From assembly GCA_964496415.1 (NCBI GenBank), contig CAZBZN010000015.1:1-16294 (forward strand): a DNA stretch of 16,294 bases, read 5' to 3'. A model generated the notes under the pieces. That model worked only from the letters and a program-made list of their open reading frames with translations, was not told the DNA's origin and made no database searches. The DNA is from Candidatus Micrarchaeota archaeon. GTDB lineage: Archaea; B1Sed10-29; JAJRYS01. Positions 1 to 16,294 of this stretch are shown here, one piece after another. The position numbers and the translations under genes are program-made. How positions within the stretch are numbered: position 1 is the first letter of the stretch; each line of letters starts with the position of its first letter.

Positions 1-180
1 CTACCCCCTTCCTTAGGGAAGACACCAAAGGTTTCTTCCTCTACCATCTTCCCTTTCCACTGGACTGAAGGCCGAAGGCCTGAAGTCCTGTAAATGCAGG
101 CTTTTTGAAGCCTTAGGGGATTGAGAACCACGTTAGTGGTTCGAACATCCCCTGTCCGCCAGCCGTACGCGGCTGCCCGC
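1..180 (-). ncRNA. Structured GC-rich RNA of unresolved identity, truncated by the window edge (candidates: rRNA-operon 5' leader/spacer, or part of SRP or RNase P RNA)
   Basis: Much more GC-rich than the rest of the window, has no ORF, and is tiled with hairpins: 16-23/46-53, 62-66/84-88, 98-103/108-113, 115-121/147-153 enclosing 125-131/136-142, and 160-165/170-175. Two A.C mismatches on + become G.U pairs on -, which favours the minus strand. An AT-rich TATA-like tract lies at 184-196. Confidence 0.5.
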
Positions 181-213
181 AAGCTTTAAATTAAAGTAAT
201 CTTAGTTAGTATC

Positions 214-858
214 ATGGACTTTGCATTGTTAATTCACTTAACAGCAGTAGTGGGTTTTGCGTTGTTGCTTGTAAAGCAAACAACTGTGCTTGTTAATAGT
301 TCGAAAAGATTTTTCTTTTTAGGATTGATGAGTTTTGAAGTCATAAGCGTGATGCAGGTCTTATACAAGTTCTTCTTAAGCAAAGAACTCGCGTTGTATG
401 CTGCTTTAATCGAGTTTTGTTTTATGGTGTTAGCAATGTTGTTTTTGTTTTTTTCAGTCACTCATCTTTTCAAAGAGCATTTAGGAAAACTGGAAAAAGC
501 TTCTGCGGTAATCGGCATAGTAATAATTGCATGGGTTCTCATAGTAAAACCAATAATAATTCACAGTGTTAATGGAGCAAACCAGGCCTTTCTAACAAAA
601 GAAACAGCTCTCGTAGCTCTTTCTTACGCGTTTCTTGTTGGAGTGATAACAATAAGGAACTTGTTTAAAATAAAAGAAAGATTAAGAGGTGAGTTAAGAG
701 AAAAAATAAAAAAGTTTACTATTGGCTTAGGATTGCTTGTAATCATTGGAGTCGTGCTTGGTGGTGTTTCTCAATTACTTCATACAAGAAGCTTTACTGT
801 GATTGCGTTGCTTGCATTTGCTGTTTATGTTTACCCGTTGTTTGGTGGCAGGGGTTAA
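214..858 (+). CDS. Stand-alone 7TM membrane protein, HisKA_7TM-like sensor domain (paralogue 1)
   Basis: Seven hydrophobic segments. KRFFFLG after TM1 and ELREKIKKF before TM6 are echoed in 7033..7665 and 7666..8295. Confidence 0.65.
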   Translation: MDFALLIHLTAVVGFALLLVKQTTVLVNSSKRFFFLGLMSFEVISVMQVLYKFFLSKELALYAALIEFCFMVLAMLFLFFSVTHLFKEHLGKLEKASAVIGIVIIAWVLIVKPIIIHSVNGANQAFLTKETALVALSYAFLVGVITIRNLFKIKERLRGELREKIKKFTIGLGLLVIIGVVLGGVSQLLHTRSFTVIALLAFAVYVYPLFGGRG

Positions 859-2762: not shown

Positions 2763-3695
2763 CTACAATTTTCTCTTTATTGGTATTTCAAACTCAACTG
2801 TTGTTCCTTTGCCAAGGCCTTTGCTTTTTACTCTTATTTTTCCTTTATGCATTACTATTATTTGCTTGCAGATGTTTAAACCAAGTCCAGCTCCTTCTTT
2901 TTCTTGTTCTGCTTTGAAAAAATAAGAAAACACTCTTGAAAGCTCATCTTTGCTCATTCCCCTGCCATGGTCTTTTACTTTTACCACTACTGCGTTTCTT
3001 TTCTTTTCAACAGTTACTTCTATTGGGCCCTTGTCGTCAAATTTAATCGCGTTAGTAAGCAAGTTGACCATTACTCTTCTTATTTTTTCAGGGTCAAAGT
3101 AAAACAAAGGAATCCTTGGTATCTTTTTTTTAACTTTAAGCTTTTTTGCTTCAAGTAGAGGTTTCACTTCTTCCAAAGCTTCATTTATCACTTTAGAAAA
3201 GCTGGCTTTTTTAAAGAAGGGTCTTTCTGCGCCTGCTTTTAGCCTTTCAAAATCTAATAACTCATCTAACAACTGCTTTAGCTTTTCAGAGTTTCTTTTT
3301 ATCATCTCAGCATGCTCACGTGCTTTTTCTTCTTTAACTTCAGAAACTAAAAGGTCAGCTGAAAGCATTATGGAAGTAAGAGGAGTTCTTAACTCATGTG
3401 AAGCTACTCTCATGAATTCTGTTTTAAGCTTGTCAAGTTGTTTTAACTCTTCATAAGCTTTTTCTGATTCTTCAAGCAAGCTTAACAAAGCTTTTCTTGA
3501 AGCTTCAAGTCTTTTTGACTTCTCCTCAAGCTTTTTATTAACCTTCATTATTTCTTCTGTTTTTTTCTTCAATTCTTTTTTAAGAGAATTAACCCATCTA
3601 GAATAAACTAAGATAAAAACAAGAAATAACAAAATAAAAAAGAACAAGAATAACATAATGATCATAAAACTTTTTTCAAAAGCAAAAGCATTCAT
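2763..3695 (-). CDS. Histidine kinase (1 TM, coiled coil, HisKA, HATPase_c) with no recognisable sensor domain
   Basis: H-box ASHELRTPLTSI, N-box NLLTNAIKF, G1 DHGRGM, F-box VFSYFF, G2 GAGLGL. Confidence 0.95.
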   Translation of the reverse strand: MNAFAFEKSFMIIMLFLFFFILLFLVFILVYSRWVNSLKKELKKKTEEIMKVNKKLEEKSKRLEASRKALLSLLEESEKAYEELKQLDKLKTEFMRVASHELRTPLTSIMLSADLLVSEVKEEKAREHAEMIKRNSEKLKQLLDELLDFERLKAGAERPFFKKASFSKVINEALEEVKPLLEAKKLKVKKKIPRIPLFYFDPEKIRRVMVNLLTNAIKFDDKGPIEVTVEKKRNAVVVKVKDHGRGMSKDELSRVFSYFFKAEQEKEGAGLGLNICKQIIVMHKGKIRVKSKGLGKGTTVEFEIPIKRKL

Positions 3696-4084
3696 TTACT
3701 TCTCCTCTTTCTTTTTACTAAAAGTCTTGTCAGCTTGTCAAGTTCTTCAAAAACTGATTCAAGTTCTTTTTCTTTGTCCTGTAGCTGGGATTCAAGCTGT
3801 TTATTGTTTAAAACCTGATTCTTTGCTTCATAAGAGAACCATAAAAACATTAACGCGAAGACAAGCAAGCTGACTTCTACGAAATAAGCAAAATTATAAT
3901 CTATAATGTAAACAATGATACTTACTGCTAATAGTGCTAAACTAAGAGCAGCTCCTGAACCTATTATCAACAATTGACTTCTGTATTTTAAAAACCCACT
4001 CATTAATAACAAGTAAGAAAGCACTATTACTGTTGTTGAAAGGACTATTATGAACAATCCTATTCCTGTAGCTGCTGAGAGCAT
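3692..4084 (-). CDS. Small 3TM membrane protein with C-terminal coiled coil, translationally coupled to the histidine kinase
   Basis: Three hydrophobic helices followed by a heptad-rich tail (LESQLQDKEKELESVFEELDKL). Its stop overlaps the kinase start by 4 nt at 3692-3695. Confidence 0.75.
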   Translation of the reverse strand: MLSAATGIGLFIIVLSTTVIVLSYLLLMSGFLKYRSQLLIIGSGAALSLALLAVSIIVYIIDYNFAYFVEVSLLVFALMFLWFSYEAKNQVLNNKQLESQLQDKEKELESVFEELDKLTRLLVKRKRRSK

Positions 4085-4105
4085 AGTCTAATTAAAAGAA
4101 CAAGA

Positions 4106-4115
4106 GTATAAAAAT
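4106..4115 (-). promoter_or_regulatory. TATA box for the 3TM/histidine kinase operon (probably leaderless)
   Basis: Minus-strand TTTTTATA lies about 25 nt upstream of the ATG at 4084, with no SD. Confidence 0.5.
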
Positions 4116-4120
4116 CTGAC

Positions 4121-4483
4121 TTAAATTTTTTTCTTTATCTCTTTAAGCAGGGTTTTTGAATCAAATGGTTTTTCAATAAACCCAATGCTCTTGTTTATTG
4201 CTTTAAGGTCTTTTTTCACTCCAGTCATCTTATCAGAAATTGCCGTGATTACTATTACTGGTGTTTTTATCTTAGCTTCTTTCATTTTCACCAGCAGTTC
4301 ATTTCCAAGTTTTAATGGTAGTATTATATCTAATAACACTAAGTCATATTTTCCTGTTTTAAGCTCTTTAAATGCTTTGTCAACAGTATCTACTGTTTTT
4401 GAAGAATACCCCTCTCGCTCAAGGATCTGAGTTATCACTTTCGCCTCGTCTTCTTCGTCTTCAACTACTAAGATCTTCTTCAT
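4121..4483 (-). CDS. Stand-alone response regulator receiver (CheY-like) domain
   Basis: KILVVEDE acidic pocket, phospho-acceptor LLDIILP, VIVITA, FIEKPF. No output domain. Confidence 0.95.
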   Translation of the reverse strand: MKKILVVEDEEDEAKVITQILEREGYSSKTVDTVDKAFKELKTGKYDLVLLDIILPLKLGNELLVKMKEAKIKTPVIVITAISDKMTGVKKDLKAINKSIGFIEKPFDSKTLLKEIKKKI

Positions 4484-10693: not shown

Positions 10694-10897
10694 ATGAAAA
10701 CTACAACTAAAGTGATATTAGATGAAAAGTTAGTTTACAGCTTTCTAAAACACTTAAACTTAGTGCTAAAAGATGTTGAAAGGATAGAAGAACAAATAGC
10801 AATGAATAAAGCACTTCAAAGACTCGAGGAGATAAAAAAAGGAAAAGCAAAACTAGTCTCAGAAGAGGAATTTGAAAAATTATTTAAGAGGCTTTAA
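10694..10897 (+). CDS. Putative type II antitoxin (RelB-like)
   Basis: 67 aa from ATG 10694 with an AGGTGG SD. C-terminal RLEEIKKGKAKLVSEEEFEK is typical of archaeal RelE partners. Stop lies 1 nt before the toxin ATG. Confidence 0.7.
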   Translation: MKTTTKVILDEKLVYSFLKHLNLVLKDVERIEEQIAMNKALQRLEEIKKGKAKLVSEEEFEKLFKRL

Positions 10898-10898
10898 A

Positions 10899-11186
10899 AT
10901 GAAAAGCCAAAAAGTAGGATTTCATCCTAATTTTATCAAAGACATAAAAAAATTTAAAAAAAAAGAACAGGACATTATTCTTAAGAAAATAAATGAAATC
11001 AAAGAAAATCCTGAAAGAAAAAGACTTCATTATACAAACAACTGCTACTCTGTTCGGTTCAAAAATTTCAGAATAATCTATTATTACCATAAAAAAGAAG
11101 TCTGGTTCTTGACAGTAGAAAAAAGAAAAAAAGTATATGACTCTTACCTTAAAAGATTAAAAGAAATGATTAAAAATTTTAAGTGA
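10899..11186 (+). CDS. RelE/ParE family toxin
   Basis: Basic 95-aa protein: FHPNFIKDIKKF, INEIKENP, YSVRFKNFRIIY, VEKRKKVY. Confidence 0.85.
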   Translation: MKSQKVGFHPNFIKDIKKFKKKEQDIILKKINEIKENPERKRLHYTNNCYSVRFKNFRIIYYYHKKEVWFLTVEKRKKVYDSYLKRLKEMIKNFK

Positions 11187-11192
11187 ACTGCT

Positions 11193-11861
11193 ATGAAAGA
11201 GATTTTTCCAGGAGTTTTCAAACAAGAAAAAGAGTTGTACACTTTAAACAAAACTCCAGGAGTCAAGGTTTATGGTGAAAAATTAGTTAAGGTGAGTGGA
11301 AAAGAATACCGCCAGTGGAATCCTTTCAGGTCAAAGCCAGCAGCAGCTATTCTTAAAGGCTTAAAAAACTTTCCAATAAAGCCAAAAAGTAAAGTACTAT
11401 ACCTTGGGATAGCTGAAGGCACTACTGCTTCTCATTTTTCAGACATAGTATGTGAAAAAGGAATAATAATAGGAATTGAAATTTCACCAAAGCCCTTTGA
11501 AAAACTATTGCTCTTGTGTGACGAAAGAGAAAACATAATCCCAATAATTGCAGATGCTAACAACCCAGAACAATACTTTGAAGTAATGAAAGAAGTTGGA
11601 AAAGTTGACGTGATATACCAAGACTTAGCTCAAAGAATACAAGCAAGCATTTTCTTAAAAAACGCTGACTTATTTTTAAAACCAAAAGGCTATGGGGTTT
11701 ACATGGTGAAAGCAAGAAGCATTGACGTGACCGAAAAACCATCACAAGTGTTTAAAAAAGAAGTTGAAAAAATAGAAAAAGCAGGTTATTCTGTTATTGA
11801 AAAGCTTGAACTCAACCCGTTCCATGAAGGCCATGCTTGTTTAGTCATTAAGAAGGAATAA
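11193..11861 (+). CDS. flpA: Fibrillarin-like rRNA/tRNA 2'-O-methyltransferase
   Basis: VYGEKL, EYRQWNPFRSK.AAAIL.GL, VLYLGIAEGTTASHFSDIV, NIIPIIADA, VDVIYQDLAQ, KARSIDVT, LNPFHEGH. Confidence 0.97.
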   Translation: MKEIFPGVFKQEKELYTLNKTPGVKVYGEKLVKVSGKEYRQWNPFRSKPAAAILKGLKNFPIKPKSKVLYLGIAEGTTASHFSDIVCEKGIIIGIEISPKPFEKLLLLCDERENIIPIIADANNPEQYFEVMKEVGKVDVIYQDLAQRIQASIFLKNADLFLKPKGYGVYMVKARSIDVTEKPSQVFKKEVEKIEKAGYSVIEKLELNPFHEGHACLVIKKE

Positions 11862-12285
11862 GGTACTCTGGAACGTTAAACACTGTTAGTTTTTCTCCAG
11901 TGAAGAAAAGCTTTCCGTCAACAGTAATATATGAAGTCACTGTGTTTGAAGCGTTTTCATTTGAAAGCACTACTGTAAGCTTGTATAACCCATGTTCTTC
12001 TGTTATTTCAGGAATGCTTACTTTCGTTCCTTCTTCAACAAGATTTGTTTGAATAAAATTCAAAGCAGCTTTCTTTGCTTTTTCAGGGGAAAGCTTTAGT
12101 TCACTAGAAGTCATTATCAAGTACACTGAAAATAAAGCAACAGCAGTAATCAAAGCAGCTGCTACAAAAGTAACCAAAGCAACGTCCCTGTTCCACTCAA
12201 TGCCTTGTTTTGTTTTGGTTTTAACAACTTTCCTTACTCTCTTTTTCTTAGCATTTTTTCTCTTAGCTTTTTTCACAGCCATCAT
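11848..12285 (-). CDS. Membrane-anchored protein homologous to the N-terminal (DsbC/DsbG-N-like) region of the adjacent oxidoreductase
   Basis: Basic N-terminus, one TM, then SPEKAK...GLYKLTV...TSYITVDGKLFF, matching SPIKAK...SVYEINL...ASYLTLDGEYFF in 12294..13226. GGTGA SD at 12289-12293. Confidence 0.7.
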   Translation of the reverse strand: MMAVKKAKRKNAKKKRVRKVVKTKTKQGIEWNRDVALVTFVAAALITAVALFSVYLIMTSSELKLSPEKAKKAALNFIQTNLVEEGTKVSIPEITEEHGLYKLTVVLSNENASNTVTSYITVDGKLFFTGEKLTVFNVPEYLIPS

Positions 12286-12293
12286 AAATCACC

Positions 12294-13226
12294 TTAACAG
12301 ACCCCAGTAGGACCTGATGAAGAACTGCTTAACTGAGCAGAACATTCCTCAGGAGGATTAATGAAAGCACTGCAAACAGCTTGTTTGTAAGCTTCAGAAG
12401 TCCTTGAGCCAGAGTAAAGCTTGTCATTAATGAAAACAGTAGGAGAACCACTCACTTCATAAATGTTGGTTAACTGTTCATCCTCTTTCATTAACTGCAC
12501 TCCTTCCTCATCAACACAGGCTTCTATTTTTGACTCATTAACGCCAACTGCTTCAGCAGCTTCCTTCCAACAGGAGTTTATTGTCTGCAAGCTGCAGTTG
12601 TAGTTAACGTAATCCAAGTAATCCCAGAACTTTTCAGGGTAGTATTTGTAAATACATGCTTGTCTCATGTCTTCCTGTGCTTCTAAAGAACCATGCAAGG
12701 AATAAACAGTATCATTGACAACCCTAACAATGAACACTGGTTCAAAAACTGCTTTTCCTTCAAGCAATCTTGCAACAGGACTTAAAGCTTTTTCAGCTTG
12801 TCTTCCAAAAGGACAGAAACTCATCACAAAGAATTTCACTTCTGGCTTTTCTGTCTTCTCATAACCCTCCGAAGTTTCTTCAGTTTCATTAATCAAGTCA
12901 GAAACCAAGAAACCCTGTGGGAAAAAATATTCACCATCTAAAGTAAGATAAGAAGCAAAGTTTTGGCTTTTACCATTAGCTTCAATGCTTAAGTTAATCT
13001 CGTAAACGCTTCCTTTAAGCTCTATTGAATCAATTGAGTAATTAAACTGCGGCGGGACAAGCTTGTTCAAAATCTTCTCACTCACCTGCTTTGCTTTAAT
13101 TGGCGAAACAGCATTATGCTGGTAACCAAAACCAGAAACATACATCAAGAAAACGCCAACCAAAAGAACCGTCAGCACGACAACACTTACCTTTAAAATT
13201 CTTATTTTTTCCTTTTCATCAGCCAC
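12294..13226 (-). CDS. Membrane-anchored thioredoxin-fold protein, DsbA/GILT-like
   Basis: N-terminal TM, FFVMSFCPFG active-site region, GILT-like SLHG..E..ED.RQAC, cis-Pro VSGSPTVFIN, Cys-rich C-terminus. Confidence 0.8.
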   Translation of the reverse strand: MADEKEKIRILKVSVVVLTVLLVGVFLMYVSGFGYQHNAVSPIKAKQVSEKILNKLVPPQFNYSIDSIELKGSVYEINLSIEANGKSQNFASYLTLDGEYFFPQGFLVSDLINETEETSEGYEKTEKPEVKFFVMSFCPFGRQAEKALSPVARLLEGKAVFEPVFIVRVVNDTVYSLHGSLEAQEDMRQACIYKYYPEKFWDYLDYVNYNCSLQTINSCWKEAAEAVGVNESKIEACVDEEGVQLMKEDEQLTNIYEVSGSPTVFINDKLYSGSRTSEAYKQAVCSAFINPPEECSAQLSSSSSGPTGVC

Positions 13227-13230
13227 TTAA

Positions 13231-13917
13231 TCATCTCCCTTTAAATTTCTTTTTCTTTAATTTTCTGCTATTTTGTAATCCATAAAAATCAAGAGTCTTT
13301 TGTTTAAAATTTTTATTGTTCACATTTAATAACTTTCTATGTCTTAAATCTAAAACCAACTCCGCTAAGTTTTTAGGCGTTATTATAATTCCAAATTCTT
13401 CAAGACTTGATTGCTTAACTTTTCCGTAAGAAGGTGTGGGTAATCCGAACTCTATTCCTTCAACATACTTCTTTCTTTGAAACTTTCTTAGTTTATCATC
13501 AACAAGGAAACCTTCCTTTTTAGTTTTTTTCTTAACATAACCATTTGTATTCAATTGCTTAGCAATAAATGATGAAATCTCTTCAGAAAACTTTGAATTA
13601 ATAAATACTCTATTACCCTCTTTAATAAACAATTTGATACTCTCTCTTAATTCCTCAAAATTAGGAATATTCTCCTTTAACCATTCAGAAAAAAATTCTC
13701 TTCCTTCCTTTGTCAATAATGCTCTTTTCAAAGCTTCTTCTTTTAACATCATTTCTTTTTTATAGTCCAGGCTATTCTCTTTTCTTAATCTTTTTATCTC
13801 TTCTTCTAGTTCCTTAGGAAATAAACCAGAACGCTTGAGATCATTATATAGCTTATTAACCCTATCTTTAGGAAACAAAACTCCAACAACATCCAAATAC
13901 AGATCCATACCTGTCAC
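13231..13917 (-). CDS. Divergent HAD-superfamily (phosphatase-like) protein
   Basis: Motif I-like LYLDVVGVL at the N-terminus, helical cap, motif II-like EGNRVFINSK..EEISSFIAKQL, motif IV-like FLVDD. Start is GTG 13917 or ATG 13908. Confidence 0.55.
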   Translation of the reverse strand: MTGMDLYLDVVGVLFPKDRVNKLYNDLKRSGLFPKELEEEIKRLRKENSLDYKKEMMLKEEALKRALLTKEGREFFSEWLKENIPNFEELRESIKLFIKEGNRVFINSKFSEEISSFIAKQLNTNGYVKKKTKKEGFLVDDKLRKFQRKKYVEGIEFGLPTPSYGKVKQSSLEEFGIIITPKNLAELVLDLRHRKLLNVNNKNFKQKTLDFYGLQNSRKLKKKKFKGR

Positions 13918-14678
13918 TTTTCCAATAACTCTGAAAGTTTTGGCCAGTAATAATTTTTCATTTCAAGAATATACTGCATATCATTAATCAAATTACTCCA
14001 CCTTTGTAAAGCTTCTAATTTGTCCTTACTTAAAAAACTCAACCTTTCAAGAGCCTCTTTTCTTTTATTTTTTTTATCTCTATTTTCAAAAGAAGCATAC
14101 TTCAAAATCCCTATATCACCCTTAATATGCTTAATAAAAGGGTGTTTTTCAACTAATTTAGGATCTTTTAATTCTTTTAAAATTTCAAAAATATAAGCCT
14201 CTTTATCTAAGGTAATTAAATCTAAAAAAGTTTTATTCACTTCTTCTTTACTCATATTAGGAACAAAACTTTCAAGAAGTTTTTTGAATTTTCTAGTAAA
14301 CAAAGAATAATAAGGCGCAGTGAGAAAGAAATAACCAAAAAATCTCAATGAATACTCATAATTAAATTTTGGATCTTCTCTTTTTATTGCTTCATCCATT
14401 TTTTTCATGCACTTTTTCATTATTTCAATTACATGAGACATAGAATCATATGAACTGCATAGCTCTTTTAATTTATCATTTAATTTTTTCAAATCACTTT
14501 CTTCTATTTCAATACCATATTCAGTTAATCTAAGAAACACCTCTTCTCCTAAAATTTCATGAATAACTTTCATTATTCCCCTGTATATCATCTTGTCACT
14601 TTCATCAAGGGCAAGTCTTTTCTTTTTAACTTTTCCTGAAAAATCCTTTGAATAAGTTATTGAATAATAAGTCTTCAA
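13914..14678 (-). CDS. Hypothetical mainly alpha-helical protein, possibly the detached substrate-binding domain of a PEP-utilising/rifampicin-phosphotransferase-like enzyme
   Basis: 254-aa ORF coupled on both sides by 4-nt stop/start overlaps. Family resemblance judged by eye only (LDLITLDKEAYIFEILKEL...KHPFI...). Confidence 0.45.
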   Translation of the reverse strand: MKTYYSITYSKDFSGKVKKKRLALDESDKMIYRGIMKVIHEILGEEVFLRLTEYGIEIEESDLKKLNDKLKELCSSYDSMSHVIEIMKKCMKKMDEAIKREDPKFNYEYSLRFFGYFFLTAPYYSLFTRKFKKLLESFVPNMSKEEVNKTFLDLITLDKEAYIFEILKELKDPKLVEKHPFIKHIKGDIGILKYASFENRDKKNKRKEALERLSFLSKDKLEALQRWSNLINDMQYILEMKNYYWPKLSELLEK

Positions 14679-16294
14679 CCTTTTATCACCCTAACTAGCC
14701 CTTTAACACCGTCAACAATAACAAAATCTCCTGTGTTAATAATTCTTGTAGCTTCTTTAATTCCATTAACACATGCTTTTTCAAATTCTCTACTTACAAT
14801 AGCTAAATGAGATAAAAATCCTCCTCTCTCCCCCACAAATCCCTTTGCTTTGATTATAAAAGGAACAACAACAGGTGTGGAATCCGTTATTACTACTATT
14901 TCATCATCTTTTATTTCAAGAAGATCCTTTTCATTGGATATCACTCTAGCAAATCCTTCTGCTTTGTATGGAGAAATAGGATTACCCTTCAACAAGATTA
15001 CTTTTTTATCCTCTTTATCTCTTTCAATCTTTCTTTTTAATAAAAAACCATCCTTCCAACCGTCATAGAAAGCTTTTTTTAACAAATATTTTATAAGTTC
15101 TTTATTGAAATAGCACCTAGCATCTTTATTATCAAATCCTCCAGAGCAATAAAACCTTCTAGCAGAACATCCGCCGCCACAAACAAATTTAAAAGCACAT
15201 TTAGAGCAATCTTCATTGTTATCAACTAAGGTTTTTTCTTTTATTTCGCTAACTATCTTATTGTAGAAAATTTTTTGAGGTTGGGAATTATATTTGCCTA
15301 AAATAAACCTTTTATCACCAACAAATTCTTCACATGGATAAATATTACCATCTGGACCTAAAGCAAGCATATCTCTTCCAGCACCACACGGCGAATGCAT
15401 ACATCGGTAATAATAAGATTGATTCTTTAAAATAGAAAAAATAATATCAACATTTCTAAACTTTATCATTTTCTTTTTGTCTTTAATACCCTCATTGTAC
15501 CTGCTTATTTTCTCCATCAAAAACAGGTAAAGTTCTAACAATTGTTCATCAGATATCAAAAGGTCAGCAGCTTTACTACCTCTCCCAAAAGGGTACATTG
15601 GATTTAAACTAAAAGAATTTAGGCCTTCTTCAACTAAAAAGTTAAAATAATCCTCTTTATGCTCCCAAGTAATCTTAGTAGCAACACTTATAATACCAAA
15701 TTTAATATTATGCTCTTTTAACTTCTTAATCCCATTCATAGTTTCATCAAAAGTCCCCTCTCCGTTGGGCTTTACCCTCTGTTTGTCATGAATCAATTTA
15801 GGACCATCAATACTAACCCCAACACCAATTTTGTTCTCTTTTATGAAATCACATACTTCATCATCTATTAAAGAAGCATTAGTTTGCATGTCAAATCTAA
15901 GATCTAACCCAGATTCTTTAGCGTAATCAACAATTTTTTTAATTTTCTCAAATTCCAACAAAGGTTCTCCACCGTGAAATTCAATAGCATACTTATCAAA
16001 ACCCCAATCGTTTTCTTTCAAGTTATCTATAAAACCAAAAGCATCTGACAAACTTAATGAATGCCCTTTTCCAGCATTAGCGTAACAGTACTTGCACCTG
16101 TAATTACAAGAATTTGTCATGTGGTATACTATGAACAATCTTCCTGAAATATCTCTAAAATTAGCAGGATCAAAAAAGGGTTTAAAAAATTTCTTTTCAG
16201 ATTCACTTAATTTCTTCTTGCCAAGAACAGAAAGAGCTTCATCATCAACAATAACCCAGCGACGATTATTTTCATTAAGAACAAATGATAAATC
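14675..16294 (-). CDS. Radical SAM/SPASM peptide-maturase-like protein with N-terminal RRE-like region and C-terminal PEP-utilising mobile (phosphohistidine swivel) domain; 5' end is outside the window
   Basis: CNYRCKYC, FHGGEPLL, QTNA, VSIDGP..IHD..R. SPASM CMHSPCGAG...IYPCEEF...CSKCAFKFVCGGGC...C. C-terminal ERGGFLSHLAIVSREFEKACVNG..ATRIINTGDFVIVDGVKGLV. The frame stays open from 16138 to the edge (DLSFVLNENNRRWVIVDDEALSVLGKK...). Confidence 0.9.
   Translation of the reverse strand, partial: DLSFVLNENNRRWVIVDDEALSVLGKKKLSESEKKFFKPFFDPANFRDISGRLFIVYHMTNSCNYRCKYCYANAGKGHSLSLSDAFGFIDNLKENDWGFDKYAIEFHGGEPLLEFEKIKKIVDYAKESGLDLRFDMQTNASLIDDEVCDFIKENKIGVGVSIDGPKLIHDKQRVKPNGEGTFDETMNGIKKLKEHNIKFGIISVATKITWEHKEDYFNFLVEEGLNSFSLNPMYPFGRGSKAADLLISDEQLLELYLFLMEKISRYNEGIKDKKKMIKFRNVDIIFSILKNQSYYYRCMHSPCGAGRDMLALGPDGNIYPCEEFVGDKRFILGKYNSQPQKIFYNKIVSEIKEKTLVDNNEDCSKCAFKFVCGGGCSARRFYCSGGFDNKDARCYFNKELIKYLLKKAFYDGWKDGFLLKRKIERDKEDKKVILLKGNPISPYKAEGFARVISNEKDLLEIKDDEIVVITDSTPVVVPFIIKAKGFVGERGGFLSHLAIVSREFEKACVNGIKEATRIINTGDFVIVDGVKGLVRVIKG

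Follow-up and report, generated by a model that had tools for sequence, protein, structure and literature searches.

A radical SAM/SPASM enzyme fused to a phosphohistidine swivel domain in a DPANN archaeon and its candidate RiPP-type pathway

The window analysed here is the entire contig CAZBZN010000015.1 (C15 below; 16,294 bases) of a Candidatus Micrarchaeota archaeon, and all coordinates refer to it unless another contig is named. Its source genome (G000) comprises 687 kb in 41 contigs, is 91% complete, has a G+C content of about 33% and encodes fibrillarin and Nop5. For comparison, a phylum set of 31 DPANN genomes, G000 included, and a wider related set of 41 genomes were used. At the end of the contig lies a gene in which a radical SAM/SPASM enzyme continues into a PEP-utilizers swivel domain, and this fusion gene, together with a pathway for peptides that are made by the ribosome and modified after translation (RiPPs) to which it may belong, is the subject of this report. 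The gene and its parts are as follows:

14675..16294, minus strand: radical SAM/SPASM-swivel fusion gene, 539 codons plus stop, 5' end beyond the end of C15
16133..16294, minus strand: N-terminal segment, residues 1-54, in which the block FVLNENNRRWVIVDD...LSESEK is conserved
15635..16120, minus strand: Radical SAM core, residues 59-220 (Pfam PF04055, E 7.7e-21, 75.4 bits against a cut-off of 29.5)
15110..15388, minus strand: SPASM domain with the full cysteine pattern (Pfam PF13186 at residues 303-366)
14975..15073, minus strand: linker between SPASM and swivel, approximately residues 408-440, corresponding to the gene overlap in split relatives
14699..14911, minus strand: PEP-utilizers swivel (phosphohistidine) domain, residues 462-532 (Pfam PF00391, 66.9 bits against a cut-off of 23.1)

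The whole region from 14675 to 16294 is a single open frame of 539 codons without internal stop, which is still open at the end of C15. An earlier note on this DNA had described one frame that joins a CxxxCxxC radical SAM core and a full SPASM domain to a swivel domain that retains its histidine (codon 14807-14809), a description with which the sequence and the Pfam matches agree. In detail, the CX3CX2C motif reads CNYRCKYC, with C63, C67 and C70 encoded at 16085-16108. The SPASM pattern is complete, comprising seven cysteines for two auxiliary clusters (C-X12-G-X4-C, then CSKCAFKFVCGGGC, which is CX2CX5CX3C, and one later cysteine), and the PF13186 score of 21.5 bits lies exactly at the cut-off. 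In the swivel, which reached 71.4 bits with PF00391 in the genome-wide search, GGFLSHLAIVSRE holds the carrier His496 (numbering of the partial protein) in a GGxxxH..RE context. The motif is given as T/SXXGGXXXH in PMC12167813, and at -8, where this motif has T/S, the fusion has Gly.

The N-terminal segment is short, with about 62 residues ahead of the cluster motif, and conserved in the alignment, where the block FVLNENNRRWVIVDD...LSESEK is common to all swivel-paired radical SAM enzymes. It had been called RRE-like, which was not confirmed: the whole fusion protein gave no PqqD match, and the N-terminal segments of three members matched no PqqD/RRE profile at E up to 10. The likeness to CbpB/HxsB-type maturases, also claimed before, stands insofar as the top NCBIfam models are HxsB (181.9 bits against a cut-off of 370), PapB (180.5 against 340) and CbpB (177.2 against 375), and falls short insofar as they score at about half their cut-offs. 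GrrM/OscB (133.8 against 310), YhhB (121.4 against 445) and AmcB (110.1 against 425) were matched with E 7e-39 to 1e-31, and models of the anSME and NirJ/AhbD type also score (E 7.6e-44 to 1e-26). Among structures in the PDB, matches were obtained to CteB (5wgg, E 6e-38), with anSME as second-best, and over residues 415-537 to RPH (5fbs and 5hv1, E 3.6e-12). An Atlas feature search with the fusion protein gave radical SAM/SPASM clusters only, all under 0.9 and none with PF00391.

The junction, which the earlier note had wanted to see confirmed with reads, was compared with assembled contigs of two public sequencing runs, X1 and X2, which come from two studies and are both labelled hydrothermal vent metagenomes. 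Contigs of both runs bridge the junction between SPASM and swivel (14300-15202 and 14300-15167) with zero insertions or deletions and without any stop; X1 shows 12 substitutions leading to 4 conservative residue changes, and X2 19 substitutions leading to 8 conservative ones, which in both runs concentrate at the end of SPASM and in the linker (14969-15212). One of the two runs may be the source sample of C15 itself; the other holds a diverged strain with 13 differences on the junction-bridging contig, in which the frame is kept. Since the bridging contigs come from two studies and differ from C15 by nothing but substitutions, we do not regard the fusion as an artefact of assembly and are practically certain that the fusion gene is real. 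A frameshift error that merged two overlapping genes would be in line with the situation in all five other genomes described below, where both genes are separate and overlap in different frames, and with the lack of a swivel on any of the 120 listed database relatives; given the indel-free coverage by independently assembled contigs and a frame that stays open despite 19 and 12 substitutions, such an error is extremely improbable.

Recurrence of the gene pair and a candidate precursor

PF00391 is absent from all 120 listed relatives of the fusion protein (the 8000 scored included 810 at E up to 1e-10), and the closest of them, P0002 (60% identity) and P0004 (46%), end shortly past the SPASM domain. 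Matches to the radical SAM enzyme at E up to 1e-30 were found in 8 of the 41 related genomes and were compared with all swivels of the 31 phylum genomes. In G004, G011, G013 (two tandem pairs), G021 and G027 a separate swivel gene is located directly downstream on the same strand, and the two open reading frames (ORFs) overlap by 8-88 nt. Together with the fusion of G000 the association is thereby present in 6 of the 31 phylum genomes, the fused form being found in G000 only among the listed relatives and genomes compared. No swivel lies near the radical SAM matches of G032 and G038, which are outside the phylum. In the alignment the linker of G000, LLKGNPISPYKAEG, is the overlap junction of the split relatives read in one frame. 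The fusion is the hard-fused form of a radical SAM/SPASM and overlapping swivel gene pair that recurs in this DPANN phylum. The carrier histidine is invariant in the seven radical SAM-associated swivels, as in all 11 swivels compared.

In a crude neighbour-joining (NJ) tree with 100 bootstraps, the enzymes of G000 and G011 and P0002 (100%) are placed together with swivel-free bacterial forms about 700 aa long, and those of G004, G013a, G021 and G027 form a second clade (98%); both paired clades are separate from the unpaired radical SAM/SPASM paralogs of G000. Enzymes of the radical SAM/SPASM type are many for a 687-kb genome: three consecutive radical SAM/SPASM-type genes of 466, 317 and 339 aa are located on contig C8 (L025, 6768-10029, minus strand), and further copies on C24, C3, C10 and C7. 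The two pairs of G013 belong to two whole peptide/radical SAM/swivel sets in tandem on contig C30 (L032, 2933-7699), whose radical SAM enzymes are placed in different parts of the tree.

The region upstream of the fusion gene was found on a second contig of G000, C25 (L006), the start of which overlaps the end of C15 by an exact 55 nt, the sole such overlap among all contig ends of this genome. C25 was analysed separately and not joined to C15, and the upstream evidence depends on this 55-nt overlap. C25 adds about eight missing codons (MLMERLDK) after a G-rich, Shine-Dalgarno-like run. Past the end of C15 (16265-16294 region) there are two different continuing contigs in X1 and one contig in X2, which reaches 185 bases further; from the alternative continuations in X1 it follows that strains differ just upstream, at the gene start and the peptide genes.

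Directly upstream of the fusion gene and on the same strand, C25 contains a 43-codon ORF, MKIFSINSKNSKVCSYMIEYDDYGYIDRYGDNYSVSAYIDSSH, with the core variant YIDRYGD and the Shine-Dalgarno sequence GAGGTGAT 5 nt ahead of its ATG. The motif [WYF]ID.YG[DE] occurs twice in the 1,374,642 six-frame residues of G000, both times directly upstream of the fusion gene, and is not found in 10 shuffles. ORFs of 35-48 residues, acidic and rich in aromatic residues, lie upstream at all paired loci, and the core W(I/T)DTY(G/S)(D/E) is present in the upstream peptides of four genomes, at the same position and on the same strand:

G011, directly upstream of the radical SAM gene, same strand: peptide …KWIDTYGDTGGQY…
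G013, directly upstream of the radical SAM gene, same strand: peptide …GTWIDTYGEREEDE
G021, directly upstream of the radical SAM gene, same strand: peptide …GTWTDTYSDSDSD…
G027, directly upstream of the radical SAM gene, same strand: peptide …YVDTWTDTYGDLG

The peptides start with M(K/Q)(V/I/A)(W/F), and their core is a series of aromatic-X-Asp/Glu triplets, namely W/Y-I/T-D and Y-G/S-D/E. Conserved Cys residues and His-Xaa-Ser repeats are absent from these precursors, the G011 peptide being free of Cys altogether. A RiPP-type system with the 43-aa ORF as its precursor is likely. The fusion, for which the earlier note had considered the case of a singleton with neither precursor nor conserved neighbourhood, does have a candidate precursor and a conserved gene order, only the fused form itself having been found in G000 alone.

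It might be argued that this is not a peptide pathway and that the radical SAM/SPASM enzyme acts on a protein or a small molecule, as in the anSME and heme/NirJ-type enzymes, the small ORFs being no substrates at all. The scores of the anSME and NirJ/AhbD-type models and the second-best PDB match would suit such a role, and the small ORFs are predicted from sequence only. We nevertheless consider it very unlikely, since in G000 the motif is located solely upstream of the fusion gene with none in the shuffles, is found again in G011, G013, G021 and G027 with position and strand unchanged, and belongs to an ORF with a Shine-Dalgarno sequence, and since the best-scoring models are those of peptide maturases.

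A second copy of the motif is located on C25 (approximately 110-238, minus strand) between the 43-aa ORF and the fusion gene; it runs MKVFSLGVRCKTKLS, TGA, WGPWIDNYGEHNGYDQ... and reads …WIDNYGEHNGY…. Because the in-frame TGA is a normal stop in G000, where it ends 133 of 334 long frames, this copy is probably a decayed duplicate. Recoding of the TGA, including selenocysteine, was ruled out by this stop usage, and no suppressor or selenocysteine tRNA was found.

Downstream proteins and a possible phosphoryl donor

Three genes follow the fusion gene on the same strand:

13914..14678, minus strand: 254-aa protein whose family is very rare; the start overlaps the stop of the fusion gene
13231..13917, minus strand: 228-aa HAD-like protein, with fold matches and a homolog in the G011 cassette
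12294..13226, minus strand: 310-aa membrane-anchored DsbA/thioredoxin-like protein, co-directional

G011 has its genes in the order precursor, radical SAM/SPASM enzyme (45% identity), swivel as a gene of its own (52%), and homologs of the first (261 aa) and the second (206 aa) of these proteins. The 310-aa protein is not conserved in this cassette and therefore probably stands outside the system. The earlier note had proposed the helical and HAD-like downstream proteins as partners, and the predicted folds agree with its description of both; as partners, however, they accompany the pair in G000 and G011 only and hence do not belong to its constant core.

The 254-aa protein has few relatives. 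Two were found in a word-based search, and among 1.84 billion representatives there were 8 proteins, including itself and one probable false match; within the phylum set the family is present in 3 of 31 genomes. A metagenome scan for wider relatives gave only a contig identical to G011, and a scan of a genome collection yielded, apart from the G011 record, only a weak match to Wolbachia (E 8e-4) that we regard as spurious. Comparison of profiles with hhalign indicated no relation of the family to the partners of three other orphan swivels (probabilities 0.2-0.4%) or to the N-terminal extension of the long radical SAM forms (1.4%). E239 is invariant in 8 of 8 family members, K241 is found in the six closer ones, and an NYYWP motif is conserved.

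The model of the 254-aa protein (pLDDT 82.8) combines a small beta-sheet with a helical bundle. With the exhaustive aligner VIA the only full-length structural match was RPH (5hv1_A, 216 residues, Z 7.3, root-mean-square deviation 5.1, chain 328-682), the other rows being mostly three-helix bundles over about 100 residues. The matched range lies inside the RIF-binding domain of RPH, which extends over 327-754 according to PMC4844700. The Atlas's own model of the protein found its best match in a cluster with PPDK_N and Rph_4th, outside the ATP-grasp (TM 0.48, 181 residues aligned). With regard to the catalytic Arg-Glu/Lys block of the RPH substrate domain, ungapped extrapolation of the VIA ranges would place E239 approximately at RPH residue 667. 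Three points weaken the resemblance: Foldseek returned generic helical repeats only (best E 0.16), a sequence profile of the 254-aa protein did not retrieve RPH from the PDB, and both structural scores are of a size that helical proteins can reach by chance, a Z of 7.3 being in the range that VIA calls common for helical models. In the models the protein thus bears a weak resemblance to the substrate-binding domain of RPH, which we take as a supported lead and not as a demonstration.

The 228-aa protein has, in its model, a HAD-like fold, Rossmannoid and with a cap. HAD-superfamily folds account for each of the 50 VIA rows listed (best Z 9.9) and for the top Foldseek rows, which are weak (best E 8.4e-3); the model has a pLDDT of 69.5 and its C-terminal third is poorly modelled. 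Like HAD phosphatases and the P-domains of P-type ATPases, whose fold is indicated by both methods, it has a nucleophile Asp (Asp9), an S/T motif and a DD motif, all kept in 3 of 3 family members. A complete HAD motif I reads DxDx(T/V), the second Asp (Asp+2) being the general acid/base. Unlike in HAD phosphatases, motif I (LDVVGVL) is incomplete here, with Val at Asp+2 (Glu in a paralog on C7), and no Pfam HAD model scored above threshold. A word-based search gave no relative of the protein. The C7 paralog adjoins another orphan swivel.

That swivel is one of three more stand-alone swivels in G000 that keep the histidine, on C36 (L022:3343-3666), C7 (L023:7356-7679) and C5 (L024:6052-6336). 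Each of them overlaps a downstream gene of 316-343 aa without Pfam family, and a weak relationship (E 5e-6) connects two of these partners.

Of the precursor, PPDK_N and transporter for which the earlier note had proposed to look upstream, only a candidate precursor was found, that on C25. G000, G011, G004 and G013 encode one PPDK_N each, within a PpsA-like gene of 758-775 aa elsewhere in the genome (in G000 on C26), and G021 and G027 have full-length PpsA and PPDK only. In total, there are five swivels in G000 versus one ATP-grasp. A further genome, G016, has within 3.4 kb a swivel, a stand-alone PPDK_N (E 1.2e-98) and a protein of 284 aa that is related to the 254-aa protein, an arrangement that, by analogy, fits a split dikinase. 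On its contig C14 (L020, 1-3346) the order in tandem is a 254-aa-like gene, the swivel, a second 254-aa-like gene, a 110-aa ORF and the stand-alone PPDK_N; no radical SAM gene was seen on this contig, which begins inside the first gene.

A possible pathway and known systems

Our proposal is a RiPP-type pathway that would combine radical cross-linking with histidine-mediated phosphoryl transfer. It is the most probable of the readings considered; as an overall mechanism it is tentative, and we hold it slightly more doubtful than not. The radical SAM/SPASM part would abstract a hydrogen from the acidic residue, Asp or Glu, that stands third in the aromatic-X-Asp/Glu triplets; this residue would then be cross-linked to the aromatic ring in the manner of triceptide-like cyclophane chemistry. 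The swivel histidine would receive its charge in trans; the most probable source would be the ATP-grasp of the one PpsA-type enzyme in the genome, and the other candidate a stand-alone PPDK_N such as that of G016. We infer transfer to the peptide: the 254-aa protein would provide the site at which the swivel hands its phosphoryl group to the hydroxyl of a Thr or Tyr, and the HAD-like 228-aa protein would remove or relay that phosphate. That the swivel acts as a phosphoryl carrier at all is possible to much the same degree, our belief in it staying just short of our doubt.

A number of results weigh against this proposal. All NCBIfam maturase models score far under their cut-offs for the fusion protein, and for this reason the cross-link chemistry is a guess. 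The G004 and the second G013 peptides match the motif only loosely, and none of the 100 bootstrap NJ trees united the paired radical SAM enzymes in one exclusive clade. Four of the six genomes lack the 254-aa and 228-aa proteins, which would form the site and process the phosphate. A PPDK_N/ATP-grasp or PEP-binding domain is found neither in nor near any of the six cassettes, a transporter neither upstream nor in any of them, and the GG ahead of the carrier histidine is degenerate in G013a, G021 and G027.

The last two points lead to the suggestion that the cassette is of RiPP type with a swivel that is free of phosphate and serves as a docking or peptide-recognition module, for example as a substitute for a full RRE or as a bridge to partners, the histidine being kept for structural reasons. 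Six cassettes without phosphoryl-donor domain and three of seven radical SAM-associated swivels with a degenerate GG motif would agree with this, as would a short N-terminal segment without RRE match, since leader binding could then lie elsewhere. In addition, the PDB matches include a pyruvate kinase (2e28_A) whose C-terminal swivel-like domain is not known to have a phosphotransfer role. On the other hand, all 11 swivels compared, which share 31-52% identity, keep both the histidine and the R-E behind it, the partners in the cassette resemble a substrate domain of RPH and a phospho-enzyme of the HAD type, and G016 ties the same module to a stand-alone ATP-grasp. On balance we consider a mere docking role unlikely.

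Alternatively, the swivel could be a regulatory phospho-switch that is set by PpsA/PPDK or PEP status and gates the radical SAM enzyme by energy state, the peptide staying unphosphorylated. The only ATP-grasp and PEP-binding domains of these genomes do sit in enzymes of central metabolism, and in G004, G013, G021 and G027 the core unit of precursor, radical SAM enzyme and swivel lacks a substrate-binding partner. No precedent for such a switch was found in the literature searched, however, and the RPH-like and HAD-like proteins of G000 and G011 suggest a small molecule or peptide as phospho-acceptor, which leaves the switch rather improbable. To about the same low degree we would credit a more far-reaching version of the proposed pathway, in which the cassette makes a phosphorylated and cross-linked small product from the W(I/T)DTY(G/S)(D/E) core, for instance a peptide-derived cofactor or signal in the manner of pyrroloquinoline quinone (PQQ) or mycofactocin, with the phospho-His swivel as an obligatory partner of the radical SAM enzyme and with several swivel-plus-partner modules of these minimal genomes sharing the single PpsA ATP-grasp as charging station.

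Among known systems, triceptides carry aromatic-to-C-beta cross-links on Omega1-X2-X3 motifs, as described in PMC11499958. The likeness to the triceptide synthases HtkB, HaaB, ChlB, YhhB and GrrM/OscB consists in a radical SAM/SPASM enzyme beside a short precursor with aromatic-X-X triplets, from which a cross-link would be expected here by analogy. In contrast to triceptide systems, the third triplet position is always acidic here, the host is a DPANN archaeon, no GrrM/OscB, YhhB or AmcB model reaches its cut-off for the fusion, and a swivel is fused or adjacent, for which no counterpart is described in the literature searched.

PapB and QhpD act on Asp/Glu side-chain carbons, and the type of residue that they target is the one conserved in the peptides described here. 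Together with CteB/SCIFF and HxsB/CbpB they represent the best-scoring relatives of the fusion. The precursors of HxsB contain His-Xaa-Ser repeats, and those of thioether maturases contain Cys motifs. The present system differs from the HxsB, PapB and CbpB equivalogs by scores at about half the cut-offs and by peptides with neither such repeats nor conserved Cys, and from these families and CteB by the swivel, of which there is none among the 120 listed relatives. Lacking conserved Cys, the peptides do not suit the thioether chemistry of the families that score best.

In the PQQ pathway (PqqA/PqqD/PqqE) a radical SAM/SPASM enzyme cross-links Glu and Tyr of a short peptide. An acidic-to-aromatic cross-link of a short peptide by a radical SAM/SPASM enzyme, in an operon that is kept even in small genomes, would, by analogy, be shared with this pathway and that of mycofactocin (MftA/B/C). 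The system differs from both by the lack of a PqqD/RRE match and of any of the other pathway genes, and no PqqE or MftC model is among the best 25 of 103 NCBIfam matches.

With regard to the phosphoryl transfer, HpeHI, CreHI and PpsAB are described in PMC12167813 as split RPH homologs that phosphorylate phenolic hydroxyls. A His swivel and domains split over several polypeptides are features that the present system has in common with RPH and these enzymes, and the separate 254-aa protein, which weakly matches the substrate-binding domain of RPH, may be a further one. Unlike in RPH, the swivel is attached to a radical SAM enzyme and not to the substrate-binding domain, and the 254-aa protein is far smaller than the 428-residue RIF-binding domain and without sequence similarity to it. 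Unlike in dikinases of the RPH type generally, there is no ATP-grasp in the cassette and the presumed acceptor is a ribosomal peptide.

The literature searched on radical SAM enzymes with swivels, on RiPPs with phosphohistidine, on RPH with RiPPs and on DPANN with RiPPs gave nothing relevant. While radical SAM/SPASM maturases and PEP-synthase-type swivels are each well known, a conserved partnership of the two was not found in it, which is consistent with the earlier note, whose author knew of no characterised enzyme fusing them. If the histidine does carry phosphate, the cassette would represent a new combination of radical cross-linking with phosphorylation of a ribosomal peptide and would extend the dikinase logic of RPH and HpeHI from small molecules to peptides. 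The candidate precursors would in addition constitute, for DPANN archaea, a new family whose acidic-aromatic core is sharply conserved. Because a multi-gene peptide pathway is retained in genomes of 0.3-1.3 Mb, an important role is suggested, possibly in dealings with host cells.

Other genes on the two contigs

On C25, a stretch at approximately 560-760 (minus strand) starts like a tRNA (GGGCCCATAGCTCAG...) and ends with ...GGGCCCACCA, with about 120 extra bases in between. This stretch, which was not detected by ARAGORN or Rfam, may be an intron-bearing archaeal tRNA.

The rest of C15 holds unrelated genes, among which there is no transporter and no protease. A MazE-like domain protein (855-1544) and a ParE-family toxin ORF (10872-11186) are encoded, the latter between the genes for Nop5 and fibrillarin. 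The stretch at 2763-4483 (minus strand) contains genes for a histidine kinase and a response-regulator receiver as well as a 130-aa ORF, with KaiC-like ATPases and a V4R-domain protein alongside. Finally, at 11848-13226 (minus strand), the 310-aa DsbA-like protein and a 145-aa protein both have an N-terminal membrane anchor, after which they resemble each other by eye (…YEINLSIEANGKS…YLTLDGEYFF versus …YKLTVVLSNENAS…YITVDGKLFF).

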